A DNA stretch of 63,787 nucleotides from Longimicrobiales bacterium. GTDB taxonomy: Bacteria; Gemmatimonadota; Gemmatimonadetes; Longimicrobiales; RSA9. Shown here in pieces: positions 1 through 45,762 of the stretch. The stretch's first letter is position 1. Every line of letters starts with the position of its first letter. Below the pieces are notes generated by a model. The model did no database searches. It had not been told where the DNA came from and worked only from the letters and a program-made list of their open reading frames with translations. Made by a program: the position numbers and the translations under genes. The DNA lies in assembly GCA_041568755.1 (NCBI GenBank), contig JBFFZF010000002.1, positions 1-63,787 on the forward strand. The letters are read 5' to 3'.

Positions 1-204
1 GCCGCCGAAGCCGCCGCCGAAGCCGCCCGCGCCGGGCGCGAAGAAGGCTGCGAGCCGTGGTGATGCGCCACCGCCTCCGCCTCCGGGTGGGGGACGTGGC
101 GGGCCGCCGAAGCCGCCGCCGAAGCCGCCCGCGCCGGGCGCGAAGAAGGCTGCGAGCCGTGGTGATGCGCCACCGCCTCCGCCTCCGGGTGGGGGACGTG
201 GCGG
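1..204. repeat. Perfect 102-bp tandem duplication (units 1-102 and 103-204); it may continue upstream of the window
   Basis: Base-by-base comparison shows the two units are identical. A diverged partial third unit starts at 205. The period of 102 is 34 codons. Confidence 0.9.
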
Positions 205-277
205 AGCGCCGAAGCCCCCCCCGCCCGGCGGCATCGGCGGACCCAAGAAGCCGTCGTTCCCGCGGCGAGGCCGCTAG
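2..277 (+). CDS. Partial CDS (3' end): Pro/Lys/Gly-rich low-complexity tail with a duplicated 34-aa unit (PPKPPPKPPAPGAKKAASRGDAPPPPPPGGGRGG), ending ...GGPKKPSFPRRGR*
   Basis: Frame 2 is open from the window edge to TAG at 275-277 and is followed by a hairpin at 332-359. The ORF is absent from the track because it has no start inside the window. A Gly-rich reading on the minus strand from ATG 234 is also open, so strand and frame are uncertain. Confidence 0.35.
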   Translation, partial: PPKPPPKPPAPGAKKAASRGDAPPPPPPGGGRGGPPKPPPKPPAPGAKKAASRGDAPPPPPPGGGRGGAPKPPPPGGIGGPKKPSFPRRGR

Positions 278-331: not shown

Positions 332-359
332 ACCGCCCGGCCCGACGTGGCCGGGCGGT
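332..359 (+). terminator. Terminator-like hairpin (11-bp perfect GC stem, 6-nt loop)
   Basis: accgcccggcc / cgacgt / ggccgggcggt. It lies 55 nt after the TAG at 275-277. The downstream T-tract is weak. Confidence 0.45.
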
Positions 360-390
360 TCATCGGCCTTCCGCCCTGAAGGAGCCAGCC

Positions 391-3300
391 ATGACACCCA
401 CGGGGGCGCGTACGAAGCGCGCACTTTCCATCGGCATCGACGCCTACGAAAAGATCAGTGTTCTCGACGGTTGCGTGAACGACGTGAAGCTGATGCGTCA
501 GGTCCTGACCGAGGTGTTCGGCTTCGACGAAGCGAACATGACGCTGCTGACGAACGAGCAGGCGAACCGGGTCAACATCCTGGCCGCGCTCGACACGTTG
601 ATCGAGCAGACCGGGGAAGGCGACATCGTGGTCATCCATTACGCGGGCCACGGCTCGCAGATGACGGACCTGGAAGGCGATGAGCCGAGCGGGCTGGACA
701 GCACGATCATGCCGGTGAACAGCGAGGGGTGGAGTGGTGACAACCACGACATCACGGACGATGAGATCCACCTGCGGCTGCTCAAGCTGGGTGAGAAGAC
801 GGACTACATCACGCTGATCTTCGACTGTTGTCACTCGGGCACGATCACGCGCGACGCCTTTGGCGGGAAAGCCCGTTCGGCGCCGGCGGACCGGCGCCCG
901 CCGGAAGAGATCCGCGCGATGCGTCAGAGGCTGGGCATCGCACTGCTCGACCGGAGCAACCCGCGCAGGAACGGGCCGAGCGGCCTGCTGCCGCTGTCCG
1001 GCAAATACGTGCTCATGTCCGGCTGCCGGGACGAGGAGCTGTCCTACGAACACAAGCCGGAAGAGCTGGGCGGCGAGACGGCGCACGGCGCGCTGACCTG
1101 GTTCCTGACCAACGAGTTGCGGCGCGCGACGCCCGGCACGACGTACCGGGATGTGTACGAGCGCGCCGCCGCAAACGTCACGGCCGCGAACCGGCGGCAG
1201 CACCCGCAGATGGAGGGCACGGCGGATCGCGAGATCTTCGGCATCCGGGATTTCGAGCCGATGCGTTTCGTGCGCGTGCTGCGGAGGTCTGGCCAGACGG
1301 TGACGCTCGGCGCGGGCGCGGCGTTCGGCGTGACCGCAGGCTCGAAGTACGACGTACACACCCAGGGCACGAAGCAGACCGAGGGCGTCGAGCGGCTGGG
1401 CGAGATCGAAGTCACGTCGGTCCAGGCGACGACGGCGCAGGCCAAGATCGTCGAGGAGTCGGCGCCCGATGCGATCGCCGCGGATGCGCGCGCGTTCGAG
1501 ACGGAGCACGTGTACGGCGACATGCGCCTGGCCGTCGAGGTCGTCGCGCCGCCGGCGCTCGAAGCCGAGGGCAAGGCGCTGATCGAACGGATCGAGGCTT
1601 CGAAATCGGTGAAGCTGGCCGATGCCGGACAGGGCGCGACGATGCGGGCGTACCTGCTGGCCGCGCGTGCGGAGGTCGGGGCGGATGCGCCGGCGCCGCA
1701 GCTCGGCGCGTTGGCCGGGCCGACGTGGGCCGTGGTGCGCGAAGATGGCGAGCTGGCCATGCCGCCCAAGACGCCCGCACAGCTCAAGGACGTCGTCGCG
1801 AACCTCGAGACGATCGCGCGTTATCGGCTGGCCCTCGGGCTGGTGAACCCGGACCCTGACAGCAGGCTGGCCGCACCCGTCGAGGAGGACGGGCAGCTGC
1901 TGCCGCGCTTCGAGATCCAGCTTTTGCGACCGGGCGACGCAGAAGGCGAGTGGGTGGTCGCGGAGCCGGACCCGGACACGAGCCAGATCGTGTTCGAGGC
2001 GATGGATCCGCCGTCCGAGGAGCAGGAGCGCGAGTGGGAAGAGACCGGCGACTACCCGCCGCCGAATTTCGGCGTGCGCATCATCAGCCGGCACGACAAG
2101 CCGGTCTTCGCGACCATGCTCGACTTCGGCGTGGCGGGCGCGATCTCACTTCTGTATCCGGCGCCCGGCGCGCAGGAGATGCTGCGCGAGAACGGCAACT
2201 TCAGCGTGACCGATCTGTTGCCGCTGTCGTTTCCGACGGTGTTTCCCTTCGCGGAGGACCCCGTCCACGGGGGCGCGGCCGAAGGAACGGAGACGATCAA
2301 GCTGATCATCACGACGAAGAGCGCCGACTTCAGCTTCCTCAGGCAGGAGAGCGTGCGGTCAGCCGCGGTGCGTGCGCCGTCGCCGCTCGAGTCGCTGTGG
2401 GAGTCCGCGGCCAAGGGGAGCGCGACGCGGGACGCGAAGCGGCGGCCCACGAAGCCGAAAACCGAGGCGGAGGACTGGACGACGGTCGTGAAGCCGTTCG
2501 TGCTGCGCCGGCGGACCGGCGCCCCGCTGGACGCGAGCGGCGAGCCGGTGAAGCTGGGCACGGTGGCGCTGAAGACCGACGGGCTCAGCGGCGAGGCGAC
2601 GCTGCACACGGAGCGAGGCCGTGCGGCCGCGGCCGCCCTCCAGGCCGGTGGCCTGCTGGGTGCGCTCGAAGCCGAGAACGTCGAGCTGCGCCAGACCGTG
2701 AGCCTGTCGAACACACGGGAGACCGGGCCGGCCTCGCGGTCGGCACGCGGCGCACCCGCGATCGAGGTGCAGATCGAGGATCCGGGAGCAGGCCGCGGCC
2801 AGATGCTGCTCACGACGGATGAGACCGGCGCCGTGTCCTGGGTGTTCGCGGAGCCGGCGCCGGCCGGCGCGCGCGGCGGACCGCCGGTACCCGGTGGTGC
2901 GCGCACGTACGTGATTCCGCGCGCGAAGGCGACCGCGCCGGCCGGCGAGCCGGGCGCGCGCGGCGTGATCGGTGCGGTCGGCCGCAAGCTGCTCAAGGAG
3001 CTGGTGTTCCCGCTGGTCGATCCGCTGATCGGCGCCGTCACGGAGACGTTCGTCGGCCGCTGGGAGGCGCGCAACCGGCCGTACGGGATCCGCACGTTCA
3101 CGCCGGACGACTACACGCAAGCCGTGGACCACGCGCAGGCCTCCGCCGGGCAGATCGACGGCGAGGGCTGGAAGCGGCTGGGGGCCGGTCGCGCTCTGCT
3201 CCTGGTGCATGGCACGTTCAGCCGCGCGCACAGCGCGTTCGGCGCGTTGCCACGCGAGTCCGTGGAGGCGCTGCACGCGCTTTACGACGGCCGCGTCTTC

Positions 3301-4005
3301 GCGCTGGATCACTTCACGCTGTCGCAGGATCCGAAGCAGAACGTGAACTGGCTGCTCGATCGCCTGCCCGGCGACGCGTCTCTGGATGTCGACATCATCT
3401 GTCACTCGCGCGGCGGTCTGGTCAGCCGGGTCCTGAACGAGAAGCAGAGCGAACTGAGCCTGGGCTCGCGCAGCCTGCGTGTCGGGCGGATCATCTTCGT
3501 AGGATCGCCGAACGCGGGGACGATCCTGGCGGACGGCGACCACGTGGGCGATCTGATCGACACGTACACGAACATCGCGAACTTCATCCCGGACATCGGA
3601 GTGAGCGACGTGATCTCCGGCGTGATCACGGTGGCCAAGCAGATCGCGGTGGGCGCGGTCGGCGGCCTCAAGGGTCTGCAGTCGATGCGACCGGAGGGCG
3701 ACTTCGGCCAGTGGCTGAACGCCGGCGATCGCGCCGGCGACACGCGCTACTTCGCTCTCACGTCCGACTACACACCGGCCGAGCCCGGTCTGGCCAACTT
3801 CGCGAAGAACCGGCTCATGGATCTGATCTTCAAGGGTCCGAACGATCTGGTCGTGCCCACGAACGGCGTGTTCGAGGACAACGGGTCCGGTTTCTTCCCG
3901 ATCGAGGATCGCCACGTCTTCACCGGCACGGACGGCATCGCGCACACGGCGTTCTTCGGGAACCGCGCGGCGCGGGACAAGATGATGAGTTGGCTGCAGG
4001 CGTAG
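391..4005 (+). CDS. Multidomain protein: N-terminal peptidase C14 (orthocaspase/metacaspase-like), central DUF4384-like region, C-terminal alpha/beta-hydrolase (lipase/esterase-like)
   Basis: An AAGGAG Shine-Dalgarno (SD) sequence lies 7 nt upstream of the ATG. The caspase dyad context is IVVIHYAGHGSQ and LIFDCCHSG. The C-terminus has LLLVHGTFS (oxyanion-hole type), the nucleophile elbow ICHSRGG, and later NDLVVP and GIAHTAFF. I see no signal peptide or TM segment. Confidence 0.85.
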   Translation: MTPTGARTKRALSIGIDAYEKISVLDGCVNDVKLMRQVLTEVFGFDEANMTLLTNEQANRVNILAALDTLIEQTGEGDIVVIHYAGHGSQMTDLEGDEPSGLDSTIMPVNSEGWSGDNHDITDDEIHLRLLKLGEKTDYITLIFDCCHSGTITRDAFGGKARSAPADRRPPEEIRAMRQRLGIALLDRSNPRRNGPSGLLPLSGKYVLMSGCRDEELSYEHKPEELGGETAHGALTWFLTNELRRATPGTTYRDVYERAAANVTAANRRQHPQMEGTADREIFGIRDFEPMRFVRVLRRSGQTVTLGAGAAFGVTAGSKYDVHTQGTKQTEGVERLGEIEVTSVQATTAQAKIVEESAPDAIAADARAFETEHVYGDMRLAVEVVAPPALEAEGKALIERIEASKSVKLADAGQGATMRAYLLAARAEVGADAPAPQLGALAGPTWAVVREDGELAMPPKTPAQLKDVVANLETIARYRLALGLVNPDPDSRLAAPVEEDGQLLPRFEIQLLRPGDAEGEWVVAEPDPDTSQIVFEAMDPPSEEQEREWEETGDYPPPNFGVRIISRHDKPVFATMLDFGVAGAISLLYPAPGAQEMLRENGNFSVTDLLPLSFPTVFPFAEDPVHGGAAEGTETIKLIITTKSADFSFLRQESVRSAAVRAPSPLESLWESAAKGSATRDAKRRPTKPKTEAEDWTTVVKPFVLRRRTGAPLDASGEPVKLGTVALKTDGLSGEATLHTERGRAAAAALQAGGLLGALEAENVELRQTVSLSNTRETGPASRSARGAPAIEVQIEDPGAGRGQMLLTTDETGAVSWVFAEPAPAGARGGPPVPGGARTYVIPRAKATAPAGEPGARGVIGAVGRKLLKELVFPLVDPLIGAVTETFVGRWEARNRPYGIRTFTPDDYTQAVDHAQASAGQIDGEGWKRLGAGRALLLVHGTFSRAHSAFGALPRESVEALHALYDGRVFALDHFTLSQDPKQNVNWLLDRLPGDASLDVDIICHSRGGLVSRVLNEKQSELSLGSRSLRVGRIIFVGSPNAGTILADGDHVGDLIDTYTNIANFIPDIGVSDVISGVITVAKQIAVGAVGGLKGLQSMRPEGDFGQWLNAGDRAGDTRYFALTSDYTPAEPGLANFAKNRLMDLIFKGPNDLVVPTNGVFEDNGSGFFPIEDRHVFTGTDGIAHTAFFGNRAARDKMMSWLQA

Positions 4006-4092
4006 CGCCGCGTCCGGGCTGGCTGCAGCGGGAGCCGGCGAGGCGGCCCGGCCGGGATGACGCCCGGCCGGGCCGTACTCATGCCGCGTGAC

Positions 4093-4950
4093 TCAGAAGT
4101 TCACGACGAGCGCGACGGTGAACACGCTGTCCAGTTCGTTCAGTGGCGTCGCCACGTTCTGGCCGGTGGGCGCGCCGCCGCTGGTCTGGAGCGGGACGAG
4201 GACGAGCGACGGCTGATTGTCGAACAGCAGCTGCAGGCTGGTCTTGAGAGCCAGGCTGTTGCTCAGCGCGACCGCGATCGAGTTGGTCCAGTCGGCGCGC
4301 AGGTCCTCCGTCTCGTTCAGATTCTCATCGACGAGCAGATTGCTGGTGAAGCGCGTGGTCGAGGACAAAGCCCGCTGTGCTTCGGCGGAAATGCGCAGCC
4401 CCGCGAACGAGTCCTTCCGGGTCGGATCTTCGACCACATCGTCCTGGAACGTGTACGTGAAGCCGTAGTCCGTCTTGAAGACCGTGTTCTCGGTGTCGAC
4501 CCACGAATTGCCGGCCCCGGCGATGACGCCATACCGGTTCTGCACGCCCGCGAACGTGTTGCGGTTCCAGCCGGCGCCGCCGAACAGGAACATGCGCGGG
4601 CTGAGCGAACGGTCGTAGCGTGCCCGTGCGTAGTAGGACTCCGCGGTCAGCGCACTCGTCTCCGTCTCGTTGACGACGAAGCTGGACGCGGTGCCGCGCG
4701 CCGAGCGGGTGCGCGTCGAGGATTCGGTGCGCAGGCCACCGGCCTCGAAGCGGAAGCGGGCGGACTCCCAGAGCCTGCGCAGGTCGTTCTTGAGGCCGAA
4801 CGTGCTGGCCGCCGAATTGCCACCGGTCCAGACCGAGGTCAGTTCCGTCGTATTGTACCAGCCGGGCGGCGGCGGGTCCTGCGCCATGGCCGCGCCCGGC
4901 AAGAGCATCGAGAGTACACCCGCAAAAACGCAATGAACGACTCGCAGCAT
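4093..4950 (-). CDS. DUF481 (YdiY-like) outer-membrane beta-barrel protein
   Basis: Signal peptide ...LLPGAAMAQD, alternating beta-strand pattern, C-terminal ...ALVVNF. The overall pattern matches DUF481 from memory. Confidence 0.7.
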   Translation of the reverse strand: MLRVVHCVFAGVLSMLLPGAAMAQDPPPPGWYNTTELTSVWTGGNSAASTFGLKNDLRRLWESARFRFEAGGLRTESSTRTRSARGTASSFVVNETETSALTAESYYARARYDRSLSPRMFLFGGAGWNRNTFAGVQNRYGVIAGAGNSWVDTENTVFKTDYGFTYTFQDDVVEDPTRKDSFAGLRISAEAQRALSSTTRFTSNLLVDENLNETEDLRADWTNSIAVALSNSLALKTSLQLLFDNQPSLVLVPLQTSGGAPTGQNVATPLNELDSVFTVALVVNF

Positions 4951-4992
4951 CAGATTCTCCTGGATCGTGTTGCAGGGAACGTCGGTCCGGCT

Positions 4993-5805
4993 CTATTGCC
5001 GAACCACATCGTCGAAGTAGCGGCTGTTGGAAATGCCGATGAGTCTGCCTTCGTGCTCGATGAGCGTCTGCGTGGGCGTGATCGAGTGGAGGATGCCCCG
5101 CTGGCCGCCCAGCTCGATATCCTCGCCGACGCGGAAGCTCTGCCGCACGTAGAAGCCCGCAAGCATGTTGCGGGTGATGTCTCGGGAGCCGAGGCCGAGG
5201 GACAGGCCGAATGCGAGGGCGAGGCCGCCGAGCAGGGCCGTCGAGACGAGGCGCACCATCTCGGTATCAATGCGCAGCTGGCTGACGGCCATCACGCCGA
5301 GAACGAAGAACAGGATCGCGGTCACGAGCCGGCCGAGCGAGCCGGCGAACTCGATGCCGGAGTTGTCGGCGGCCTGGGTCACGGCCCCGCCGGCCCACTG
5401 AGCCGCGGCTCCGCCCAGCACGAGGATGAGCAGGGCGGCAATGATGTTGGGCACGAAGGCCATGAACGTGGCGATCGCGCTGGAGATCGCGACCAGGCCG
5501 AGCGCGTCGGCGGCCGTGCGGGCGAACAGGATGAGCAGCAGGTAGTAGATGACGCGCGGGACGATCTGGTTGATCGATTCGCGCACGCCGAGCCGCTGCA
5601 GTCCCTGTTCGATTCCCACGCGTGCGAGGAGCGCGTCGAAGTGTACGCGCACGAGAATGGCGCGCAGGATCTTCTCGATGAGTCGGGCGACGACGAGCGC
5701 GAGGATGATGAGGCCGATCGCGCCGACCACGCGCGGTGCGGCGCCGACGATCGTCTCGAGCGTGTCCTGCAGCATCGTGGTCCAGATCTGTCGAAGTTCA
5801 GGCAT
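4993..5805 (-). CDS. MscS-like mechanosensitive channel family protein (conserved TM-helix repeat type)
   Basis: Several TM helices are followed by an MscS beta-domain-like segment (VGEDIELGGQRGILHSITPTQTLIEHEGRLIGISNS). The start overlaps the upstream ORF by 8 nt. Confidence 0.7.
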   Translation of the reverse strand: MPELRQIWTTMLQDTLETIVGAAPRVVGAIGLIILALVVARLIEKILRAILVRVHFDALLARVGIEQGLQRLGVRESINQIVPRVIYYLLLILFARTAADALGLVAISSAIATFMAFVPNIIAALLILVLGGAAAQWAGGAVTQAADNSGIEFAGSLGRLVTAILFFVLGVMAVSQLRIDTEMVRLVSTALLGGLALAFGLSLGLGSRDITRNMLAGFYVRQSFRVGEDIELGGQRGILHSITPTQTLIEHEGRLIGISNSRYFDDVVRQ

Positions 5806-6028
5806 GCTCGTCCTCCCGTTGGTTGTTTCTCTGGGCCAGCCACTGGAAGACGAGTCGGACGAACTCCAGCACGACGGTCGCGGGGGCGCTCCACGTGAGC
5901 TCGGTGGCCCGGGCCGAGAGCAGACGCCGATGGATCGACCGGCGCACCGCGGCGGAGAGGCCGGGCTCGGCCTCCCAGGCCAGGTCCTGGAGCTCGGGCG
6001 TCAGGTCGTCCTTTTCGTCTTCAGCCAT
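5798..6028 (-). CDS. Small protein, possible anti-sigma factor
   Basis: 76 aa with an acidic N-terminus and one hydrophobic segment. Its ATG shares one base with the sigma-factor stop (TGATG). The assignment rests on position only. Confidence 0.45.
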   Translation of the reverse strand: MAEDEKDDLTPELQDLAWEAEPGLSAAVRRSIHRRLLSARATELTWSAPATVVLEFVRLVFQWLAQRNNQREDEHA

Positions 6029-6606
6029 CAGTCTTCGAGTTCATCATACTGCTTGCGGAACTCCTCGCGGCCTCTGCGGATGCGCATCTTGACGGCAGAG
6101 AGACCGATGCCGAGTTCGTCGGCGATCTCCTGGTAGGAGAAGCCGTCGAGCTCGCGCATCACGAGGGGCACGCGCAGCGTGTCCGGTATCGCATCCAGAA
6201 CGGCGGCCACGCGGCGTCGGTCGTCGATGGCGTCGGTCCTTGCCTCAGCCCGCGGCGTCACCGCCAGCGCGCGTTCGCCGCCGGTCTCGGCGGTGTCGAG
6301 ATCCACGTACGAGCGCTGCTTGCGGGCGCGCAACCAGTTCAGGCAATGGTTGACCTTGATGCGGTCGAGCCATGTCCGGAACCGTGCACGCTCTTCGAAC
6401 CTGTGCAGCGCGAAGTAGGCCTTGACCAGAACTTCCTGCGTCAGGTCCTGGGCGTCGGCCTCCGAGCCGGACAGGTAGCGGCAGTTGGCCGCGACGCCAT
6501 GCTGGTGGCGCTCGATGAGCATCTCGAACGCGCGCGTGTCGTCACGCGGCGCCGCGCGGGCGCGTGCCACCAGCGCCTCGTCCGGGATCGTCGTATCGTC
6601 GGCCAT
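6028..6606 (-). CDS. ECF-type RNA polymerase sigma-70 family factor
   Basis: Region 2 (DLTQEVLVKAYFALHRFEERARFRTWLDRIKVNHCLNWLR) and region 4 (ELDGFSYQEIADELGIGLSAVKMRIRRG) motifs are present. Confidence 0.9.
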   Translation of the reverse strand: MADDTTIPDEALVARARAAPRDDTRAFEMLIERHQHGVAANCRYLSGSEADAQDLTQEVLVKAYFALHRFEERARFRTWLDRIKVNHCLNWLRARKQRSYVDLDTAETGGERALAVTPRAEARTDAIDDRRRVAAVLDAIPDTLRVPLVMRELDGFSYQEIADELGIGLSAVKMRIRRGREEFRKQYDELED

Positions 6607-9748: not shown

Positions 9749-9957
9749 CGCGGTCTCCCTGCTGGAGGAAAGGAACGGAAGACTCGTGCAGCGGCGCAAA
9801 GCTCGTGCCGGAATGATGCCGACGTAACTCGCGGGTTGTGCGCTGCCAGGTGTTGCACCGATGCCGTGGACGTTGCAGTCGTCAACGGCGGAGCAGCTTA
9901 CGTGCCAGACGCGGATCTCACGGCCCTGCCAGTGTGTTGTCCCGCCGGTTCGTGGAT

Positions 9958-10923: not shown

Positions 10924-11472
10924 TCAGCGCATGCTGGACGGCGGTGTCAGCCCCTTCATGCGCATGTACGTGACGATGTTGCCGTAGTGCTCGTTGTCGT
11001 GGGACGCGTTCTGGACCAGCGCCCACATGCGCGGCCGTTCGGCGCGCATGATCGTGGCCATTTCCATGGCCTTCATGTCCGGAATCGCGTACGCCCGGTC
11101 ACAATACGTGAACGAGGCCTTGAGCGCTTCGATGAGTGCGGTTCTGGTCGTCGCGGTCTCCTCGATGTTGACGCTGTTCGGGTTGCTCTCGCCGAGGGCG
11201 ATCGCGCAGTAGTTGTAATTGGCATTGGCGATGTGGCCGAGCAGCTGGCCGAAGCTGCGCACTTCGGGCGTGGGCCGGAAGGCGTAGTGTTCCTCGGGCA
11301 TGGCCTCGGCCGCGCGCACGACGTTGTTCTTGACACCGTCGTAGATGCTGCGCACGGCGGTCACGAGGCCGTGGTCCATCTGGTGCTCGCCATGCTGCAT
11401 CTGGTGCTGCTGGGCCGCGAGCGGCGCGGCGAGCGCGAGCAGGGCGATGGGCGCGTAGCGAATCATTTTCAT
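10924..11472 (-). CDS. DinB-superfamily protein (secreted)
   Basis: Signal peptide, then FGQLLGHIANANY ... HDNEHYGNIVTYMR, a DinB-type His-triad pattern. A 4-nt overlap links it to the upstream VWA gene. Confidence 0.7.
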   Translation of the reverse strand: MKMIRYAPIALLALAAPLAAQQHQMQHGEHQMDHGLVTAVRSIYDGVKNNVVRAAEAMPEEHYAFRPTPEVRSFGQLLGHIANANYNYCAIALGESNPNSVNIEETATTRTALIEALKASFTYCDRAYAIPDMKAMEMATIMRAERPRMWALVQNASHDNEHYGNIVTYMRMKGLTPPSSMR

Positions 11473-12680
11473 GGCGTTCTCCGTGTGACGAGTTGGCGGT
11501 TGAGCCGGGCCTCAATGGAACGAAAGACGGGCCGGGAATCAAGCCGGTGGAGCCGGCCGACGATGACATCGGCCAGGGTCTGAAGGGACGCGACGGAATG
11601 GCAGGGCAGCAGCGCGTCGACGTGCGGGAGCGCGGCGCGCAGGCCGGCGACCTCGGGCGCGAAGCCCGGCTGAGCGGCGTGCGGGCTGAGCCAGTAGAGG
11701 CGGTGGCAGGCACGCCGCAACCTCGCCATTTCCCGACCCAGGAGCGCGGATTCGCCGCGCTCCCAGCCGTCGGAGGCGATGATCACGATGGCGCCGCTGC
11801 GCACGGTACGTCGGACCCAGTGCTGATTGAGGGTCCGCACGCTCTCGCCGATGCGCGTGCCGCCGTTCCAGTCGAGGACGGTCCAGCCGACGCGGCGCAG
11901 CGCCTCATCCGTGCTCCGTTCACGGAGCTGCCTTGTAATGCGTGTGAGGCGCGTGCCGAACACGAACGTCTCGACGCGCGCGCCGGTTCTCGTCATGGCG
12001 TGGGCGAAGCGGAGCAGCAGCCGGCTGTAGCGCTCCATCGACCCGCTGATGTCGAGGATGAGCACGATCGGACGGGCTCGCCTGGGGTGCTCGAGGCCGT
12101 ACCATCGTACGGGCTCGCCGAGCGTGGCGAGTGCGCGTCGCATCATGCGGCCCGTCGCCGGTCGCCGTCCACGGCCGCCGCTGGCGATCCAGCGACGCGA
12201 CGGGCGCGACGGCAAGGCGGGCCGCAGCGCATCGACGAGCAGGGCGGCATCCCGCAGTTCGGCGTTCGTGAGCGTCCCGAAATCGGCGTGGCGGAGGCAC
12301 TCGGTCGCGCTGGCCGCAGCCGGCAGCGCGCGGCCCGGTCGCGGATCGGTGACTGCGCCGGCCTGCGCGGCCGCTGGCGCCGGGAACGTCGGCAGCCGTG
12401 CGGCGGACTGGCGGATGCGCGGCAGCAGCGGAGCACCGTCCAGGCGCGTGTGACGCTGCCAGAACAGTTCGAAAGCGTGATCGAACACGGCGCGCTCGTC
12501 GCGCCGGTGCACGAACACGGACCGGCCGGCAGCGCGCGTGACGGACTTGCGCTCGAAGCCGACGAGCGCGAGCGCCTGCGCGAAGGTGCGCGTGTGCTCG
12601 GGCCCGACGCTCAGCCCGGCACGGCGCAGCAGCCGGCCGAAGGCGACAATGTTGACCAGGAGCGGTCGGGGCTCGTTCAC
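11469..12680 (-). CDS. coxE: VWA domain protein, CoxE-like
   Basis: MIDAS motif IVLILDISGSMERY. The size and the position after the MoxR ATPase match cox accessory genes. Confidence 0.8.
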   Translation of the reverse strand: MNEPRPLLVNIVAFGRLLRRAGLSVGPEHTRTFAQALALVGFERKSVTRAAGRSVFVHRRDERAVFDHAFELFWQRHTRLDGAPLLPRIRQSAARLPTFPAPAAAQAGAVTDPRPGRALPAAASATECLRHADFGTLTNAELRDAALLVDALRPALPSRPSRRWIASGGRGRRPATGRMMRRALATLGEPVRWYGLEHPRRARPIVLILDISGSMERYSRLLLRFAHAMTRTGARVETFVFGTRLTRITRQLRERSTDEALRRVGWTVLDWNGGTRIGESVRTLNQHWVRRTVRSGAIVIIASDGWERGESALLGREMARLRRACHRLYWLSPHAAQPGFAPEVAGLRAALPHVDALLPCHSVASLQTLADVIVGRLHRLDSRPVFRSIEARLNRQLVTRRTP

Positions 12681-13579
12681 GATCCGACCTGGATCTCAGC
12701 GAGAAGCGTGCGGACGCCGTCGCCGCGCATCTGCACGACATCCTCCTGATACTTGAGCAGCACGCCGAGCGTGCGATCGATGTGCTCGGCCTGCACGTCC
12801 TGCGCCCCCAGCGCATCGAGGGCGGCGGCCCAGTCGAGCGTCTCCGCGACGCCGGGTACCTTGGACAGGTCGGCCGCACGCAGCCGCTGGACGAAGGCCA
12901 CTGCCTGCGCGGCCAGCTGCTCGCCGATGGCGGGCAGCCGGGTGCGCAGGATCGCCAGTTCGCGGCTGGCGGATGGGTAGTCGATCCAGTGATAGAAGCA
13001 GCGACGCTTGAGCGCGTCATGAACTTCACGGGTGCGGTTGCTGGTGAGGATGACGCGCGGGTTGCGTACGGCGCGGATCGTGCCGATCTCCGGGATCGTG
13101 ATCGCATAATCCGCGAGCAGCTCGAGCAGAAACGCTTCGAATTCCTCGTCGGCCCGGTCGATCTCGTCGATGAGCAGTACGGGCGCGACGTCACCGTGGG
13201 CCTCGATCGCCCGCAGCAGCGGACGCTGGATCAGGAACTCGCGGCTGAAGATGTCGCGGGCGCGGGCGGAGCGGGCCTCATCGCGCGCTTCGAGCAGCCG
13301 GATCTCGAGCATCTGCCGGGCGTAGTCCCACTCGTAGAGCGCGGTCGAGGCGTCGATGCCCTCGTAGCATTGCAGGCGGACCAGCTCGGCACCGGTGACC
13401 TGCGCGAGAGCGCGGCCCACCTCGGTCTTGCCGACGCCGGCCTCGCCCTCGAGAAACAGCGGCCGTTCGAGCGCGAGTGCGAGGTAGAGCGCGGTCGCCA
13501 GATCGTCGTCCGCGAGGTAGCCGACCTGCCGGAACGCTCCGGCCACCGCCGCCGGGCTGTCCAGCGTGCGACCCGGCAT
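12677..13579 (-). CDS. coxD: MoxR-type AAA+ ATPase, CoxD-like
   Basis: Walker A GEAGVGKTEV and Walker B LLIDEIDRADEE. Confidence 0.85.
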   Translation of the reverse strand: MPGRTLDSPAAVAGAFRQVGYLADDDLATALYLALALERPLFLEGEAGVGKTEVGRALAQVTGAELVRLQCYEGIDASTALYEWDYARQMLEIRLLEARDEARSARARDIFSREFLIQRPLLRAIEAHGDVAPVLLIDEIDRADEEFEAFLLELLADYAITIPEIGTIRAVRNPRVILTSNRTREVHDALKRRCFYHWIDYPSASRELAILRTRLPAIGEQLAAQAVAFVQRLRAADLSKVPGVAETLDWAAALDALGAQDVQAEHIDRTLGVLLKYQEDVVQMRGDGVRTLLAEIQVGS

Positions 13580-13599: not shown

Positions 13600-14454
13600 T
13601 CAGCCGGCGCGCGCGTAAGCGGCCGCGAGCGCGCGCCGGGCCACCACGCCCGCGAGGTGCGCCCGGTACTCCGACGACGCGTGGATGTCGCCGTTCACGG
13701 CACGACCGGCCGTGAGCTCCGCCGTGGCCGCCTGCAGCGCCGCGTCGTCGGCGTGGGTCCCGACGATCTTCGACACATCAGCCAGAAAAGCGTGGTCCGA
13801 GACACCCGTCAGGGCGACGACGGCCGTCTTGACTGTCTTGCGGCTGCGTGTCACGACGGCGGCAGCGCCGGCCAGCGCGTAGCCGGAGGCCTGCTGCTCG
13901 ACCGCGACATATGCCGACCCGGCCCGCCGAGGCAGCGACGGTAACACGATGTGCGTCAGCAGCTCATCTTCGCGCTTCGCGGTCGTGAAAGCGCCCTGGA
14001 AAAAATCGGTTGCGGCCACCGTCCGCTTGCGGCCTTTCGCGCGCAGCGTGAAGGACGCGCCCAGCGCGAGCATGACCGCCGGCAGGTCCGACGCGGGGTC
14101 GGCATGCGCGAGCCCGCCGCCGACGGTCGCCAGATTGCGCACCTGCAGGTCGGCGATGCGACGCACGGTCTCGGTCAGGATCGGGAACCGCTCCCCGAGC
14201 TCGGCGTGGTCGAGGACTTCGCGATACGTCACGGCCGCACCGATCGAAGTCTTGCGCGGCCGGACGTCGATGTGACGGAGCGCCTCGAGCCCGCTGATGT
14301 CGAGCAGCTTCCCGGGTCGAGCCAGCCGGAAGCGGAGGATCGGGATGAGGCTGTGGCCGCCAGCCAGAATCGTCGTTTCGCCATCCTTCGCGAGCGCATT
14401 GACCGCGGCCCGGACCGAAGTGGCCCGTTCGTAATCGAATGCGTGCGGAATCAT
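13600..14454 (-). CDS. coxM: FAD-binding medium subunit of a molybdo-hydroxylase (CoxM-like)
   Basis: MIPHAFDYERATSVRAAVNAL...ILAGGHSLIPILRFR. Its ATG overlaps the coxL stop (ATGA). The track ORF start at 14571 is an over-extension. Confidence 0.85.
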   Translation of the reverse strand: MIPHAFDYERATSVRAAVNALAKDGETTILAGGHSLIPILRFRLARPGKLLDISGLEALRHIDVRPRKTSIGAAVTYREVLDHAELGERFPILTETVRRIADLQVRNLATVGGGLAHADPASDLPAVMLALGASFTLRAKGRKRTVAATDFFQGAFTTAKREDELLTHIVLPSLPRRAGSAYVAVEQQASGYALAGAAAVVTRSRKTVKTAVVALTGVSDHAFLADVSKIVGTHADDAALQAATAELTAGRAVNGDIHASSEYRAHLAGVVARRALAAAYARAG

Positions 14455-16802
14455 CGCGCACCTCCCCCGGCCTGCTGGATCGCCGCCCACACCCGAGCGG
14501 GCGTGAGTGGCTTGTCGATGTGACGGATTCCGAACGGCGCGAGCGCGTCGCATACCGCGTTCGCGATGCACGCGACCGAAGCGATCGTTCCGGCCTCACC
14601 GATCCCTTTGACGCCGAGCGGGTTGACGGGCGAGGCCGTGTACGTGAAGTGCGATTCGATGCGTGGCATCTGGCTGGCCTTCGGCACCGCATAGTCCATC
14701 ATCGTGCCCGTCAGCAACTGACCATCGTCCGTGTACACCGCCATCTCCTGCAGCGCCTCACCGATGCCCTGGATGACGCCGCCGTGGACCTGGCCTTCGA
14801 CGATCATCGGGTTGATGTGCGGGCCGCAGTCATCGACACAGACGTAGCGCAGCACGCTGACCGCGCCCGTCTCGATGTCGACCTCGACCGTCGAGATGTG
14901 CGTGCCGTACGGATAGACGAAATTCGATGGATCGAAGAACGCACTGGCCTCCAGGCCCGGTTCCAGGCCGGCGGGCATGTTCCACGCCACGTTGGCCATC
15001 AGCGCGACATCGGCGAATGACTTGGACTGCGCCGGACTGCCCTTCACGCGGAACGCGCCGTCCTGCCATTCCACGTCGTCCTCACCGGCCTCGAGCAGGT
15101 GGGCTGCCAGCTTGCGCGCCTTCTCCTTGACCTTGCGCGCAGCCAGCACGACGGCCGAGCCGCCCACGGCCGTCGTCCGGCTGCCGTACGTGCCCCAGCC
15201 CTGCGGCGTCGATTCGGTGTCACCGGCGACGACCTCGACGTTCTCGATCGGCACGCCGAATTCGTCCGCCACGATCTGCGCGAACGTCGTTTCCTCGCCC
15301 TGCCCGTGCGGGCGGGTGCCGATGTAGACGCGCACGACGCCGGTCGGGTAGACACGTACGATCGCCGACTCGTACAGCCCGCCGCCGAACCCGACCGCTC
15401 CGGCCACCTGCGAGGGTCCCAGGCCGCAGATCTCCGTGTAGGTCGAGAGGCCGATGCCGACGTACCGGCCCTGCTCCCTCGCCTTCGCCTGCTCGGCACG
15501 GAACGCGTCGTAGCCGATCGCGGCCAGCGCCTTGTCGAACGCGGTGTGGTAGTCGCCGGAGTCGTAGGTGATTCCCGTCGCGACGGTGTACGGCATCTCG
15601 TCCTTCGTGATCAGATTCCGGCGGCGCACGTCGGCGGGGTCCAGCCCGACGGCCCGCGCGAACGTGTCGACGAGCCGTTCGACCAGGAACGTGGCCTCCG
15701 GCCGCCCCGCGCCACGGTACGCGTCCACAGGCGTGGTCGTCGTGTACACGCCCTTGACGACGCCGTGGATGTTCGGGATGCGGTACGAGCCCGAGTACAT
15801 CAGGCCATGCAGGATCGTGGGCACGCCGGGCGCCGCCGTCGACGCGTAGGCGCCCAGCCCGGCGAACACACGCGTGCGCAAGCCAGTGATCGTGCCGTCC
15901 CCGTTGCCGCACATCTCGACGTACTCGATGTGATCACGGCCGTGGATCGTCGCCTTGTAGTTCTCCGACCGGTCCTCGGTCCAGCGCACCGGCCGGCCGA
16001 CACGCATGGCGGCGAAGCTGGCCAGCAGCTCGTCGGCGTAGCACGGGATCTTGCTGCCGAAGCCGCCACCCACATCCGGCGAGATCACGCGCACCTTGTG
16101 CTCCGGCACGCCCAGTGTGACCGAGGCGAGGAAGCGGTGGATGTGCGGATTCTGGCTGGTCGTCCACAGCGTCAGCTGGCCCGTTGCCGCGTTGTGGCTG
16201 GCGACGGCCGCGCGCGGCTCCATGGCGGTCGGCAACAGCCGCTGCTGCACGATGCGCAGGTCGACCTTGACCGGTGCCGCCGCGAATGCCGCGTCGGCAT
16301 CGCCGCCGGCCACGGTCCACGTGAATGCGACATTGCCGGGCACGTCCGCGTGCAGCGTCGGCGCGTCCGACCGGGTCGCTTTCTCAGGGTCGACCACGGC
16401 GGGCAGCGGATCGTAGTCGACGTCGACCAGCTCCGCAGCGTCACGGGCTGCCTCGGGGCTGTCCGCGATGACGATTGCGACGCCGTCGCCGACGTAACGG
16501 ACTCTTTCCGCCGCGAGCAGCGGATGCGCGGGGACCTTGAGATCGCTGTCCGGTACGTTCCACGCGCACAGCACGGTGCCGATGCCGGTCAGGTCGGCGC
16601 CGGTGAACACGGCGAGGACGCCGGGCGCGGCGGCGGCGGCGGCCTTGTCGATCCGTCGGACCGTGGCATGCGCGTAGGGGCTGCGCACGACGACCATGTA
16701 CGTCATGCCCGCGAGCTTGAGGTCGTCCGTGAAGAGTCCCGTGCCGGTGAGGAGTCGCGGGTCCTCACGCCGGCGGATGCCGGAGCCGAAGAGGGTCGCC
16801 AT
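14451..16802 (-). CDS. coxL: Molybdopterin-binding large subunit, form II CoxL-like (xanthine dehydrogenase family)
   Basis: 783 aa. The active-site loop is PVDAYRGAGRPE (AYRGAGR is the form II signature, not the form I AYXCSFR). Confidence 0.9.
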   Translation of the reverse strand: MATLFGSGIRRREDPRLLTGTGLFTDDLKLAGMTYMVVVRSPYAHATVRRIDKAAAAAAPGVLAVFTGADLTGIGTVLCAWNVPDSDLKVPAHPLLAAERVRYVGDGVAIVIADSPEAARDAAELVDVDYDPLPAVVDPEKATRSDAPTLHADVPGNVAFTWTVAGGDADAAFAAAPVKVDLRIVQQRLLPTAMEPRAAVASHNAATGQLTLWTTSQNPHIHRFLASVTLGVPEHKVRVISPDVGGGFGSKIPCYADELLASFAAMRVGRPVRWTEDRSENYKATIHGRDHIEYVEMCGNGDGTITGLRTRVFAGLGAYASTAAPGVPTILHGLMYSGSYRIPNIHGVVKGVYTTTTPVDAYRGAGRPEATFLVERLVDTFARAVGLDPADVRRRNLITKDEMPYTVATGITYDSGDYHTAFDKALAAIGYDAFRAEQAKAREQGRYVGIGLSTYTEICGLGPSQVAGAVGFGGGLYESAIVRVYPTGVVRVYIGTRPHGQGEETTFAQIVADEFGVPIENVEVVAGDTESTPQGWGTYGSRTTAVGGSAVVLAARKVKEKARKLAAHLLEAGEDDVEWQDGAFRVKGSPAQSKSFADVALMANVAWNMPAGLEPGLEASAFFDPSNFVYPYGTHISTVEVDIETGAVSVLRYVCVDDCGPHINPMIVEGQVHGGVIQGIGEALQEMAVYTDDGQLLTGTMMDYAVPKASQMPRIESHFTYTASPVNPLGVKGIGEAGTIASVACIANAVCDALAPFGIRHIDKPLTPARVWAAIQQAGGGAR

Positions 16803-37367: not shown

Positions 37368-37636
37368 CAGTGTGGCGGGCGCGATCCCCGCCGGTGAACC
37401 CGCGGAACCGCCCGGAAACGCGGCGGCCGTGGGGAACCCCCGAAAATCGTTGCGTCGACGCACATCTTGCAATGTCCCGCCACTTTGTGACATCCTGGTA
37501 CCCACATTTCTCCACATCCCGGCAGGCCCGTGCCGCTGTTGGCACTGCGCCCAGACGCAGGAAGCGTTCATCCCACTCGAGGACACCGGGACGGGAGCCA
37601 GACCGTATCACTCGCACCCGTCGAACCGAGGTAACG

Positions 37637-41755: not shown

Positions 41756-42352
41756 TCATCCGGGGCCGAGGGCGGTGGCGATGACGTCGAGCACGTCCCA
41801 CGCCTGGAGCCAGAGTTCGTCGAAGCGCCGGCCGGCGGATGCGACCGCGGCCGGGGCCGTGATGAGGGAGGTCAGACGGGGCCCGGCCCGGCCGGTGTCG
41901 CCATCCAGCCCGAGCCAGCCGACGAGACAGGCGGCGCCATGAGCGGGCTGACCTGCCGAGCCGGCGAAGACCGCGAAATCCGGGACCCACCGGGTGGTGC
42001 CGGCGGACCTTATCTCGAGGCGTCCTTCGGCGATGAGGCGGCGCAGGGCGTCGAGCGCTGCGCCGCGTTCGGCGTGGGTCCGGCCGGCGGCGGCGGCGTC
42101 GGCCAGCGCATCGACATCCAGCACGCCGAGCAGAACGCGGCAGCGTGTGACGCGCAGTTCGTCAGGCCGGAAATCCAGGGCCGCGAGCCGGACCCGGCGC
42201 ACCGCGAAATCGGCGGTCGCCGAGCGGGCGAGCAGGTGACCCAGCAGATCCCGGACGCGCGGTCTCCGCTCCTGATCGAGAAGCACGCCCCGGTTGGCGG
42301 TGCGCAGGTGGAAGGGGATCCCACCGTCGCCGGTCGCCTCGCGGATGCTCAT
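41756..42352 (-). CDS. Hypothetical 198-aa protein; very tentatively a degenerate (HKD-less) PLD-like fold
   Basis: Its ATG overlaps the methyltransferase stop (ATGA). The protein contains no lysine, so no HxK motif is possible. The segment ...LEIRSAGTTRWVPDFAVFAGSAG weakly recalls the region around the GSxN of PLD nucleases. Confidence 0.5.
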   Translation of the reverse strand: MSIREATGDGGIPFHLRTANRGVLLDQERRPRVRDLLGHLLARSATADFAVRRVRLAALDFRPDELRVTRCRVLLGVLDVDALADAAAAGRTHAERGAALDALRRLIAEGRLEIRSAGTTRWVPDFAVFAGSAGQPAHGAACLVGWLGLDGDTGRAGPRLTSLITAPAAVASAGRRFDELWLQAWDVLDVIATALGPG

Positions 42353-45300: not shown

Positions 45301-45762
45301 TCCCTCGCCGGGACGCGCGACCATCTCGGCGAGCGTCTCGAGGTCCGTCGGGCGCGGCTGTTGCCGCTGGAGCACCAGGTCGCGCAGCACGCCGTCGAGA
45401 CCGGATGCGGTCAGGCCGACCGTCCGGTAGCGGGCATCGGCGAAAAGCACGAGGTGCTGCGCGGTCGCGTCGCGGCCGGCGATGCTGCGCGCCCATGCGG
45501 CCGTCGCGCGGGCCGACACCTGGCCGTCGAGCTGTACGAGCGTGAGGCGCATGCCGGCCCGCTCGGCGATCGACCAGGCCCGGCCGTCCGCGCGGCCCTC
45601 GGCCGGGCCCGGGCCGTCGGGCCGGGGGTCCAGGGACGCGAAGCCGAGCGCGGCCGCGAGGGACGCGGCACGGGCCGGTCGATCGAAGCCCGCGAGGGCC
45701 CGTTCCAGTTCAGCGGTCGAGGTCGCCACGCGCGACAAGAAGCGCGCGCTGGCGGGGCACAT
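42349..45762 (-). CDS. Large gamma-class N6-adenine DNA methyltransferase, Eco57I/MmeI/PglX-like
   Basis: YLNGGLFE, TGTFFTPPAVVDRLV, motif I RVLDPACGSGAFLLGAL and motif IV DLVVSNPPWIR. A ~450-aa region after motif IV is the presumed TRD. The N-terminal ~170 aa are unassigned. Confidence 0.85.
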   Translation of the reverse strand: MCPASARFLSRVATSTAELERALAGFDRPARAASLAAALGFASLDPRPDGPGPAEGRADGRAWSIAERAGMRLTLVQLDGQVSARATAAWARSIAGRDATAQHLVLFADARYRTVGLTASGLDGVLRDLVLQRQQPRPTDLETLAEMVARPGEGGVALAIRYARALDRARVGRRFFLEFRAHRTRVATGWTSIPRRLRAEREQLALLHLCRLMFLYFLQRQGHLAGDPAFLPGLLRRWQRQPRIGTTFHRDVLVPLFFGALNTRPERRTAAARALGPLPYLNGGLFERTRLEQRFDGLDLADEVSAALFEELLERYRFTARDHADDIVDGAFAAGIDPEMLGRVFEGMMAEDRRGDTGTFFTPPAVVDRLVPRALSAHLAARTGLTDAMLDRLMRTRSRDVADARARQRLARAAAGLRVLDPACGSGAFLLGALSRIAALRATLDVRHDGDALRRDIVTRGIYGVDIQGDAALLCALRLWLALSVPAAGRVVDPLPNLDRRIRQGDALLDPLDLAMPGTRAHVVDRGAAIDARVRAAVRALTPASTRYIAADPDERSHLLKDLADGEARLAAAWIDAIEHRLAGQLAEARARAAERDLWQQPSTAARAAASAIGRIETRTADTARIRRALEDGRALPFFSFGVHFADAALHGFDLVVSNPPWIRAHRWPAALASAVRSRYAVCRSPGWRAGTRLAGAPRAAAAQIDLSLLFLERVLALLAPHGTLGMLMPAKILRSLYGGSARRMLLRDTAISSVEDHSLDQRSIFRADAFAAAIVATRGAPATRVRVCMIRRGRRPRAFRIPQNELPLFPDDIESPWLIAPRRVTRVFRTMQAAGPLLGLHTGLRVRRGIFTGANDVLVLERVTARLGDLATVRATGWSARGDRHRSHDRSRGEDPSNGARTAERDRYEALVEATAIRPLLRGSDVGPWAWTRELWVVWTHGDGALAHQPPRRLRAYLQRHADRLDRRSGLRSSDPPGRLFRVTPDALGHKVVWHDLAATLNAVAVPAVTRTPFGWLPIVPLNSVYFVPVRNRRDALLLAAFFNALPVRTFARAIAERAKDARFRFFAWTIGALPLPADWRTAAWTDRLASLSEAAHTAGAAAPVAQQEMDSIVARAYGLDARAVRTLQSFAGWLG

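Follow-up and report, generated by a model that had tools for sequence, protein, structure and literature searches.

What does a caspase-type protease do with a lipase-like hydrolase built into its own polypeptide chain? The question is raised by a gene close to the left edge of a 63,787-nucleotide (nt) stretch of DNA, hereafter the window, from a Longimicrobiales bacterium of the phylum Gemmatimonadota (assembly GCA_041568755.1, contig JBFFZF010000002.1, positions 1 to 63,787 of the forward strand). The gene, hereafter the target, encodes a 1204-amino-acid (aa) protein with an N-terminal orthocaspase (Peptidase_C14) and a C-terminal α/β-hydrolase of the DUF7379 family. Proteases of the caspase family are increasingly recognized as key executioners in bacterial immunity and regulated cell death, and few of the effectors that act downstream of them are known (gasdermins, Csx30 and bulk proteolysis).

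A first reading of the window by a model that saw its letters and open reading frames (ORFs), hereafter the sequence-only reading, had suggested that the target may be a self-contained protease-lipase effector. The analysis reported here indicates that the DUF7379 module, with a length of ~490 aa and ~2,600 representative clusters, is a dedicated partner of C14 and CHAT proteases and looks like a latent lipase. The explanation that we prefer, and to which we give somewhat less than an even chance, is that a caspase-type protease, switched on by a signal, licenses the lipase-like executioner built into the same protein, under the control of a receptor kinase and, in relatives, of CHAT or STAND partners.

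The target protein combines an orthocaspase and a lipase-like hydrolase

The target ORF opens with ATG and is complete. Its GC content at the three codon positions (0.69/0.49/0.90 for GC1/2/3) has the bias typical of real genes in a window of 70% GC, and a ribosome-binding site precedes the start codon; the ORF put forward by the sequence-only reading was borne out on all three counts. Neither a signal peptide nor a transmembrane (TM) helix was found in the protein (maximum Kyte-Doolittle score 1.55), which is predicted to be cytoplasmic, again in agreement with that reading.

An AlphaFold2 model of nearly the full length (aa 5-1204; predicted local distance difference test, pLDDT, 85; predicted template-modelling score, pTM, 0.67) divides the protein into a caspase (to aa ~290), a β domain (~294-374), an α/β domain (~380-484), a DUF4384-like sandwich (~497-644), a low-confidence linker (~657-691), a β-rich domain with two helices (~696-874) and an α/β-hydrolase with a helical lid (~887-1204). 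When this model was used for Foldseek searches, metacaspases 4 and 9, GSU0716 and the MALT1 caspase-Ig3 structure were returned, and caspase matches dominated the list. Since they swamped the search, the C-terminal module (aa 692-1204) was modelled separately (pLDDT 82.6, pTM 0.82).

The identity of the N-terminal domain was established by several kinds of comparison. PF00656 matches aa 9-278 with 99.8 bits against a cut-off of 21.4 (E 2.5e-28), and the generic "caspase" model of PADLOC matches the target at 2.4e-25. Sequence searches of the PDB returned metacaspases 1, 4 and 9 and TbMCA2, and the Foldseek searches with the model gave metacaspase 4 at E 4e-16 and GSU0716 at a template-modelling (TM) score of 0.72. 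Catalytic His87 (nt 649-651, in YAGHGSQ) and Cys147 (nt 829-831, in DCCHSG) are unchanged throughout two alignments, with 37 and 114 full-length homologues, and the intact His/Cys dyad described by the sequence-only reading is therefore upheld. Membership in the EACC1-associated caspases (NCBIfam NF047832, caspase_w_EACC1) was rejected at 46.8 bits against a cut-off of 140.

Two further motifs, GCVND (with C28 and D31) and DCCHSG (with D145), are invariant and align with those of yeast metacaspase-1 (Yca1) and Arabidopsis metacaspase-4. The acidic S1 pocket of TbMCA2 is formed by Cys92, Asp95 and Asp211 and accommodates a basic P1 residue (PMC4357240, PMC6426788). C28, D31 and D145 of the target correspond to these residues, an equivalence drawn by motif and not from a printed alignment. 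Because of this match to the metacaspase S1 pocket, cleavage after Arg or Lys is expected of the orthocaspase, and we predict such a specificity. The p20/p10-type linker that follows the catalytic Cys has pLDDT values below 50 at aa ~150-157 and 194-201 of the full-length model. Within it R154 and R162 are kept in 114/114 sequences, and T153-R154-D155 forms an invariant motif; judged by conservation and model confidence, the linker is a candidate maturation site.

At the other end of the protein, the Pfam family DUF7379 (PF24096) matches a core at aa 936-1110 (nt 3196-3720) with 184.7 bits against a cut-off of 33 (E 2.3e-54), over the whole length of the profile (positions 1-191 of 191). The sequence-only reading had recognized an α/β-hydrolase here from the motifs HGTFS and HSRGG; both are present, the latter as CHSRGG, and the DUF7379 match and the lipase-like fold of the models agree with it. 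The oxyanion pair is H940-G941, and a helical lid spans aa ~1049-1110. In the models the nucleophile Ser1006 (nt 3406-3408) lies in C-H-S1006-R-G-G between a strand and a helix, Asp1152 (nt 3844-3846) follows a short strand (NDLVVP), and His1185 (nt 3943-3945) is in a loop before the last helix. The 37 homologues conserve H940-G941 and D1152 without exception, and S1006 and H1185 in 36/37 each. By alignment and model, this is a Ser-Asp-His triad in canonical order and positions; the possibility, raised by the sequence-only reading, that the C-terminal domain lacks a triad is thus answered by the alignment.

Foldseek searches with the module model gave 159 PDB matches at E ≤ 1e-3 with lipases and esterases on top, the best being the Geobacillus T6/T1/L1, Proteus mirabilis and Staphylococcus hyicus lipases (E ~1e-7). 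The fold is accordingly modelled as lipase-like, closest to the bacterial true lipases. Among viral folds (BFVD) the module found generic esterase, lipase, LCAT and PGAP1-like matches only. By sequence, aa 884-1204 had no PDB match at E ≤ 1, and a profile of the family returned metacaspases and a single weak "putative lipase" match. Two named families were considered and rejected: PGAP1, at 13.8 bits against a cut-off of 24.3 (E 0.049), is a remote resemblance, and Palm_thioest reached 11.5 bits against a cut-off of 26.8. The sequence-only reading had pointed to PGAP1, DUF676 or lipase families; no named lipase family qualifies, and the family is DUF7379.

The hydrolase is preceded by a β-rich domain, which belongs to the same module. 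Its loop at aa 849-862 (nt 2935-2976) carries an invariant [T/S]-R857-G858, with R857 present in 114/114 long forms and in 15/15 short, stand-alone forms of the module. One short form has a weak DUF7362 match (E 0.0019) in the region equivalent to this domain.

Between the two enzymes lies a region in which Pfam searches of the window protein gave little. For aa ~294-530 neither a Pfam nor a PDB sequence match was found (the PDB search used aa 285-700); the MALT1 caspase-Ig3 fold matches suggest an Ig-like domain after the caspase in the model. The sequence-only reading had seen a DUF4384-like segment at aa 563-650. No Pfam match to DUF4384 was obtained with the window protein, searched whole and as aa 281-935 and aa 561-710, up to E 10. 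Orthologues gave borderline PF14326 scores of 24-28.6 bits against a cut-off of 27, three of them passing, and the matched region, transferred by alignment to aa 534-644 of the window protein, encloses that segment. The domain goes undetected in the window protein because of a lineage-specific 19-aa insertion at aa ~541-559 of the sandwich. Next comes the flexible linker between the modules, followed by a strand, DWTTV..FVLRRR; R680 of the linker is found in 111/114 sequences and R706 of the strand in 108/114.

The DUF7379 module is paired with caspase-fold proteases

The same C14 and DUF7379 content is found in more than 120 full-length homologues of ~1140-1220 aa, at 44-75% identity. They come from Gemmatimonadota, Rhodothermales (Rubrivirga), Acidobacteriota (Vicinamibacterales) and Planctomycetota, and a scan with one genome per species, which gave 352 relatives, added Actinomycetota (Solirubrobacter phytolaccae). 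The fusion is therefore not confined to one lineage, an eventuality that the sequence-only reading had named together with housekeeping neighbours; the downstream neighbours in the window do look housekeeping. The distribution is patchy across phyla, and neighbourhoods vary among close relatives. In a few loci (L044, with products of 689 aa and 441 aa, L033 and L037) the full-length gene appears to be divided into caspase plus middle region and module, or to be broken as if by frameshifts; the cause may lie in the assembly, or the gene may be naturally divided at the module boundary.

Many loci of the one-genome-per-species scan match only aa ~713-1204. In an exhaustive search with aa 709-1204, 2,607 representative clusters passed E ≤ 1e-3, of which 510 also passed E ≤ 1e-30; stand-alone proteins of ~490-510 aa are in the majority. 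Those inspected (486-508 aa) start at a position that aligns with window aa ~710-712, directly after DWTTV..FVLRRR. The C-terminal ~490 aa are, on this comparison of sequences, an independent and evolutionarily mobile unit.

The company kept by the stand-alone form is regular. A CHAT gene lies directly upstream in 12 of the 15 complete stand-alone modules with readable upstream sequence, and 11 of these 12 pairs overlap or are no more than 17 nt apart, typically with a 4-nt ATGA overlap. There are also fusions with the module first, followed by CHAT (P0136, P0175, P0188) or by C14 (P0217, P0252); in P0203 the module is fused to a second, LCAT/PGAP1-like hydrolase. Distant relatives on megaplasmids sit within "CHAT domain-containing proteins". 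One of them, SPO_RS20450 of Ruegeria pomeroyi DSS-3 (L085, megaplasmid NC_006569.1, 129335-136139), consists of DUF7379 and CHAT and is followed by SPO_RS20455 (a SIR2-like protein with an AAA_21/AAA_15 ABC-type ATPase) and a gene for a 297-aa hypothetical protein; an IS5 transposase adjoins. This three-gene locus, in a genetically tractable model bacterium, is defence-like.

The module thus occurs in fusions with C14 at either end, in fusions with CHAT, and as a separate gene translationally coupled to one for CHAT. Gene order and domain content show that a caspase-fold (clan CD) protease is almost always its working partner, and the permuted fusions and the CHAT coupling are our strongest evidence that the hydrolase and the protease function together. 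The functional coupling proposed by the sequence-only reading is in this respect strongly supported.

A receptor kinase and a second protease accompany the target in many loci

We surveyed the neighbourhoods of 50 full-length loci. The sequence-only reading had found no dedicated sensor gene next to the target and had taken it for a possible solo effector. Both statements are artefacts of the window edge, which lies 390 nt upstream of the target and hides the genes beyond it. Another assembly that encodes an identical protein (L081) reaches 2.9 kb past this edge and reveals two upstream genes. The farther one (L081:3-2264, cut by the contig end) encodes a receptor-type Ser/Thr kinase with tetratricopeptide repeats (TPR), which shares 51% identity over 747 aa with the kinase upstream of other orthologues and has a TM helix at the equivalent position; the nearer one encodes a small repeat protein, treated below. 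A kinase-TPR gene is located at most two genes upstream, on the same strand, in ~21/50 loci, all of them from Gemmatimonadota (e.g. L004:6658-9507). Hydropathy analysis of the kinase predicts a cytoplasmic kinase domain, one TM helix and an outside TPR-like domain of ~640 aa. Among PADLOC models, only the generic kinase-domain models PD-T4-6, mad6 and PglW match it.

Protease genes are often found downstream. A CHAT-type gene follows the target directly and on the same strand in 11/50 loci, with an intergenic distance of -23 to +39 nt in most of them; ten encode CHAT-Big_2 proteins and one (L041) CHAT with nSTAND. A C11 (clostripain-like) gene is downstream in 4/50 and a caspase-nSTAND1-WD40 gene in 3/50. 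For CHAT-Big_2, hydropathy places the CHAT domain in the cytoplasm and the Ig-like domains outside, with a TM helix between them. The PADLOC SAVED_CHAT match in this partner covers the CHAT part only, and Pfam finds nothing there besides CHAT and Big_2. No cas or cyclic-oligonucleotide-based antiphage signalling system (CBASS) genes were seen in the surveyed flanks of the orthologue loci. Because both the kinase and CHAT-Big_2 have a predicted single-pass topology with the catalytic domain in the cytoplasm, they could relay extracytoplasmic information to the target.

The metagenome-assembled genome from which the window comes (L001, 100% identity) also has a 44%-identical paralogue (L026, contig JBFJPA010000163.1). 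Here the kinase-TPR gene, the target paralogue and a CHAT-Big_2 gene form a cassette on the same strand, with no repeat ORF. The genome carries two versions of the system.

Candidate cleavage sites and a proposed mechanism

The three main loops of low pLDDT in the models each carry a conserved [T/S]-R-[D/G] motif (at R154, R680 and R857). Among the forms examined, R857 alone recurs in fused and stand-alone proteins alike, which makes it the best candidate for a licensing cut, and judging from conservation and the models it may be the site at which the hydrolase is licensed.

We propose that the target is a two-enzyme cytoplasmic pro-effector, in which an Arg/Lys-specific orthocaspase at the N-terminus would be tethered via β-sandwiches and a flexible linker to the DUF7379 module. 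The neighbouring single-pass receptor Ser/Thr kinase would sense a signal outside the cytoplasm, with a possible contribution, in many relatives, from a caspase-STAND NTPase or from a CHAT protease anchored in the membrane. The orthocaspase would be switched on by phosphorylation or by cleavage of its p20/p10 linker, as SAVED-CHAT does to PCaspase. The active protease would then cut after Arg in flexible loops (R680 of the linker, R857 of the module), and the hydrolase would be released or unmasked. The hydrolase would attack membrane lipids or another ester substrate, with growth arrest or cell death as the presumed outcome. The small, presumably cytoplasmic repeat protein encoded upstream may be a multi-site substrate of the same protease, serving as a buffer and threshold-setter (a role like that of the inhibitor PCi, described below) or as a reporter.

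A number of observations weigh against this scheme. Cleavage at R680 and R857 is proposed from conservation and low pLDDT, and these residues could instead be structural or substrate-binding. The similarity of the fold to lipases is remote (TM score 0.44-0.54, 12-16% identity), which makes the substrate class uncertain, and DUF7379 was not mentioned in the literature searched. The window locus consists of the kinase, the repeat ORF and the target, with no adjacent CHAT gene, and the genes downstream of it are convergent and housekeeping-like (DUF481, MscS-like and an extracytoplasmic-function (ECF) sigma factor, with MscL also near). In the closest orthologue (L084, 75% identity) the gene upstream shows no relation to the kinase, and the repeat ORF is missing; the cassette is therefore modular and not universal among close relatives. 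PADLOC-DB v2 has no specific model for the DUF7379 module, the CHAT partner or the C11 neighbour, and no relatives were found in phage genomes or IMG/VR viral contigs. Finally, the protease and the hydrolase may work side by side, or control may run the other way, from hydrolase to protease.

The first of these last two possibilities deserves a fuller hearing. Protease and hydrolase could be co-activated, for instance by kinase- or partner-driven oligomerization, with no licensing step and with the fusion ensuring equal delivery of two effectors. Both active sites are conserved; the interchangeable fusion order, with C14 or CHAT before or after the module, is equally compatible with co-delivery and with licensing; and the known defence caspases are themselves promiscuous degraders. 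Such a scheme leaves unexplained why an invariant Arg-Gly should be kept in a flexible loop of the module, in fused and stand-alone forms alike, and why a conserved β-rich domain of ~170 aa should precede the hydrolase. We regard it as unlikely, and of the alternatives it is the one that survives best.

The housekeeping-type character of the chromosomal neighbours (DUF481, MscS-like, ECF sigma factor and MscL), with a synteny that is partly kept in the 75%-identical orthologue, where MscL is found downstream as well, invites a reading outside conflict altogether. The receptor kinase would trigger regulatory proteolysis together with the remodelling of lipids or acylated proteins, in the service of development, stress adaptation or membrane homeostasis. 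The full-length form has no links to mobile elements or phages and no specific defence-model matches, and the weak similarity to PGAP1, LCAT and palmitoyl-thioesterases fits deacylation of proteins as well as of lipids. Against such a role in envelope signalling stand the recurrent partners (CHAT, C11, caspase-nSTAND1-WD40, and SIR2 with an ABC ATPase), which belong to described conflict and apoptosis-like networks, as well as the patchy distribution among phyla, the paralogues in one genome and the variable neighbourhoods of close relatives. We consider it a rather improbable account of the family.

An Arg-punctuated repeat protein is encoded upstream of the target

The window contains the tail of the small gene between kinase and target, made of units of SRGDAPPPPPPGGGR followed by a Pro/Lys-rich spacer, with a 102-nt tandem repeat in 2.2 copies. 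The full gene, at L081:2245-2871, is a 208-aa ORF rich in Lys, Ala and Pro. It is a larger variant of what is found elsewhere, with AKKAA repeats followed by three 34-aa units that contain GDAPPPPPPGGGR.

A small same-strand ORF was found in the 190-510-nt gap between kinase and target in ~19-20 Gemmatimonadota loci, ending 15-115 nt before the start of the target. It encodes a short leader (often MTDxSMKDD...), 3-10 tandem Pro-rich units of 12-13 aa and a basic tail. Each unit ends in Arg (as Gly-Arg), with essentially no internal Arg; EGAPPPPPPGGGR, which occurs five times in one protein, is an example, and GDITPPPPPEEGR, TGDSPPPAAKGR, EGATAPPPAGGR, DPVAKPTSGGDR and EDSVAPVTGKGR are others. 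The reading frame was set by composition and repeat analysis, as GC3 favours Arg/His-rich shadow frames. The small ORF is probably a real coding gene, because its DNA and details vary while the pattern and the non-repetitive leaders stay conserved. It is absent from the full-length loci outside Gemmatimonadota (Rhodothermales, Acidobacteriota, Actinomycetota) and from all stand-alone-module loci surveyed.

Because the adjacent protease is predicted to be Arg-specific, the repeat protein is most simply its multi-site substrate, and from the sequence of its units it may be such a substrate, a decoy or a peptide precursor. More specifically, the ORF could be a multi-copy precursor from which the kinase-controlled orthocaspase frees near-identical polyproline peptides of 12-13 residues (such as EGAPPPPPPGGGR), or the repeats could be a consumable decoy that sets the threshold of a caspase-lipase death switch; we consider this improbable. 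To our knowledge, a ribosomal peptide factory made of a repeat precursor and a caspase was not previously known in bacteria. Fungal repeat proteins processed by Kex2 and insect apidaecin precursors would be its analogues.

That the Gemmatimonadota cassettes are a peptide-maturation machine, in which the orthocaspase cuts the precursor after Gly-Arg and the hydrolase trims or tailors the released peptides into signals or antimicrobials, would suit the placement of the repeat ORFs, their conserved leaders, Arg-ended units and basic tails, and the predicted Arg/Lys specificity of the protease, but seems to us very improbable. The repeat ORF is limited to one phylum and is absent in L084, and so does not account for a pairing of protease and hydrolase that runs through the whole family. 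Signal peptides are lacking in both proteins, no exporter gene lies next to them, and the fold of DUF7379 is like that of lipases and esterases and not of peptidases.

Features of the locus and other observations in the window

The coordinates of the features are collected in Table 1. A hairpin lies between the repeat-protein gene and the ribosome-binding site of the target. It was not called in a scan for the terminator consensus, and no sigma-70-like promoter was found; the hairpin might act in RNA processing or stability, or as a weak terminator.

Table 1. Features of the target gene and its surroundings (window positions unless another locus is named)
Feature	Position	Strand	Basis
3′ end of small repeat-protein gene (last 91 codons and stop), cut by window edge	2..277	+	translation
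GC-rich hairpin, perfect 10-bp stem CCGCCCGGCC/GGCCGGGCGG, no T-tract	334..360	+	read from sequence
Shine-Dalgarno-like GAAGGAG (GGAG core), 6 nt before target ATG	378..384	+	read from sequence
Target ORF: orthocaspase, two small domains, DUF4384-like sandwich, linker, DUF7379 module	391..4005	+	ORF, GC bias, Pfam, AlphaFold2 model
Peptidase_C14 (orthocaspase/metacaspase-like), aa 9-278	415..1224	+	Pfam, PDB sequence matches, Foldseek, residue invariance
p20/p10-type linker, aa 150-205, low-confidence loops, T153-R154-D155 (also R162, R169)	838..1005	+	pLDDT, conservation
Two small domains, β then α/β, aa ~294-530	1270..1980	+	secondary structure of model
DUF4384-like β-sandwich, aa 534-644	1990..2322	+	PF14326 matches in orthologues, mapped by alignment
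Flexible inter-module linker, aa 657-691, motif T679-R680-D681	2359..2463	+	low pLDDT, conservation
β-rich N-terminal domain of DUF7379 module, aa ~696-880	2476..3030	+	models
Lipase-like α/β-hydrolase, aa ~887-1204	3049..4002	+	Pfam, conservation, module model, Foldseek
DUF481 gene	4093..4950	-	GC bias, public gene calls
MscS-like gene	4993..5805	-	GC bias, public gene calls
Repeat-ORF equivalents in other loci	L003:9663-9887, L004:9538-9774, L005:9625-9858, L025:4094-4420, L010 ~9560-9895, others	same strand as target	composition, repeats

A 613-aa ORF at 4057..5898 (+) was considered as an operon partner of the target and rejected as a shadow ORF: it has no family match, and GC bias and public gene calls favour the minus-strand genes listed in Table 1. 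The ECF sigma factor gene (6028..6606, -) lies 2 kb downstream of the target, with a 76-aa ORF upstream of it on the minus strand (L081:8392-8622), which possibly encodes a co-transcribed anti-sigma factor. This sigma factor was examined as a counterpart of PCc-sigma, which is under PCaspase control in Haliangium, and was set aside as coincidental; its gene is convergent and is not conserved beside the orthologues.

Farther away, minus-strand genes at 34716..37586, 39139..41727, 41756..42352 and 42349..45762 form a block with AAA_16 and TPR (STAND-like), an SNF2-family helicase and a large N6-methyltransferase of the Eco57I/MmeI type. The block, ~30-40 kb from the target, may be a restriction-modification, BREX-like or DISARM-like defence island. 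Minus-strand genes at 11469..13579 and 14451..16802 encode VWA (CoxE-like) and AAA_5 (MoxR/CoxD-like) proteins beside a molybdopterin large subunit of the xanthine-dehydrogenase/CO-dehydrogenase family. This cluster is ordinary metabolic and unrelated to the target.

Significance and comparison with known systems

Should the protease indeed license the hydrolase, the DUF7379 proteins would make up a class of enzymatic executioners gated by proteases that is both new and widespread. In that case the Gemmatimonadota cassettes would link the executioner to transmembrane receptor-kinase signalling and would provide an experimentally tractable bacterial counterpart of receptor-caspase-executioner pathways. 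Rubrivirga marina, Solirubrobacter phytolaccae and Ruegeria pomeroyi DSS-3 carry the module and are available in culture. The polyproline repeat proteins, with their regular Arg punctuation, are a novelty of their own that calls for an explanation.

The closest characterized system is the cascade of the Haliangium ochraceum type III-B cluster, in which SAVED-CHAT cleaves and activates PCaspase with an abortive phenotype and which also encodes a Ser/Thr kinase, a sigma factor and PCi, a small inhibitor cleaved by PCaspase (Steens et al., bioRxiv 10.1101/2023.06.23.546230). The orthologous loci resemble it in joining a kinase, a small ORF, a C14 protein and CHAT in a strand-consistent cassette, although the CHAT gene is not at the window locus and is present downstream in the 11 orthologous loci mentioned above, L026 included. 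The main difference is that the caspase here has an extension of ~900 aa that ends in a lipase-like hydrolase. In addition, no SAVED domain and no CRISPR or CBASS linkage was seen in the surveyed loci; the CHAT partner is membrane-anchored and has Big_2 domains; the kinase is of the receptor type with a large extracytoplasmic domain; and the small protein is an Arg-punctuated Pro-rich repeat with no similarity to the CI-2-like PCi.

Bacterial gasdermins, reportedly described by Johnson et al. in 2022, are said to be membrane-attacking effectors that are activated when a caspase-like, CHAT or trypsin-like protease cleaves them. Common to both is a clan-CD protease beside or fused to a latent membrane-directed effector, where licensing by cleavage is for the target what we infer. 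The effector here is an α/β-hydrolase enzyme and not a pore-former, and a gasdermin gene is not present. In type IV Thoeris, the TIR-caspase is an Arg-specific C14-type protease that, when activated, kills the cell as an immune effector (Rousset et al., bioRxiv 10.1101/2024.10.24.620036). It differs in that the caspase is activated by a TIR-made nucleotide signal and has no hydrolase fusion; no TIR gene was seen here.

With the orthocaspases and metacaspases (MaOC1, Yca1, AtMC4/9, TbMCA2) the target shares the fold, the His-Cys dyad and the acidic S1 pocket, and with type II metacaspases the conserved basic residues in the linker that follows the catalytic Cys, but no characterized member has a DUF4384 plus DUF7379 extension. 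The hydrolase has in common with bacterial true lipases (families I.1, I.5 and I.6) the Sm-x-Ser-x-Sm elbow, the HG oxyanion, the Ser-Asp-His order and the helical lid insertion; those lipases are secreted, whereas the target is predicted to be cytoplasmic and has a β-rich domain before the hydrolase.

The C14-DUF7379 fusion is not listed in surveys of prokaryotic caspase architectures, and the pairing of DUF7379 with proteases is not described in the literature searched. The NTPase/effector-associated-domain conflict systems of multicellular-type bacteria are built from interchangeable caspase, CHAT, Ser/Thr kinase, STAND NTPase and WD40/TPR parts, and α/β-hydrolase is listed among them as a "membrane-lipid" effector (Kaur et al., eLife 2021, PMC8195603). 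Related loci of the target have caspase-nSTAND1-WD40 proteins that recall these systems, whereas no effector-associated or Death-like adaptor domain was detected here. On this comparison, we rate the cassette as a caspase-centred conflict or cell-death system of a known kind, equipped with a new and widespread effector module.

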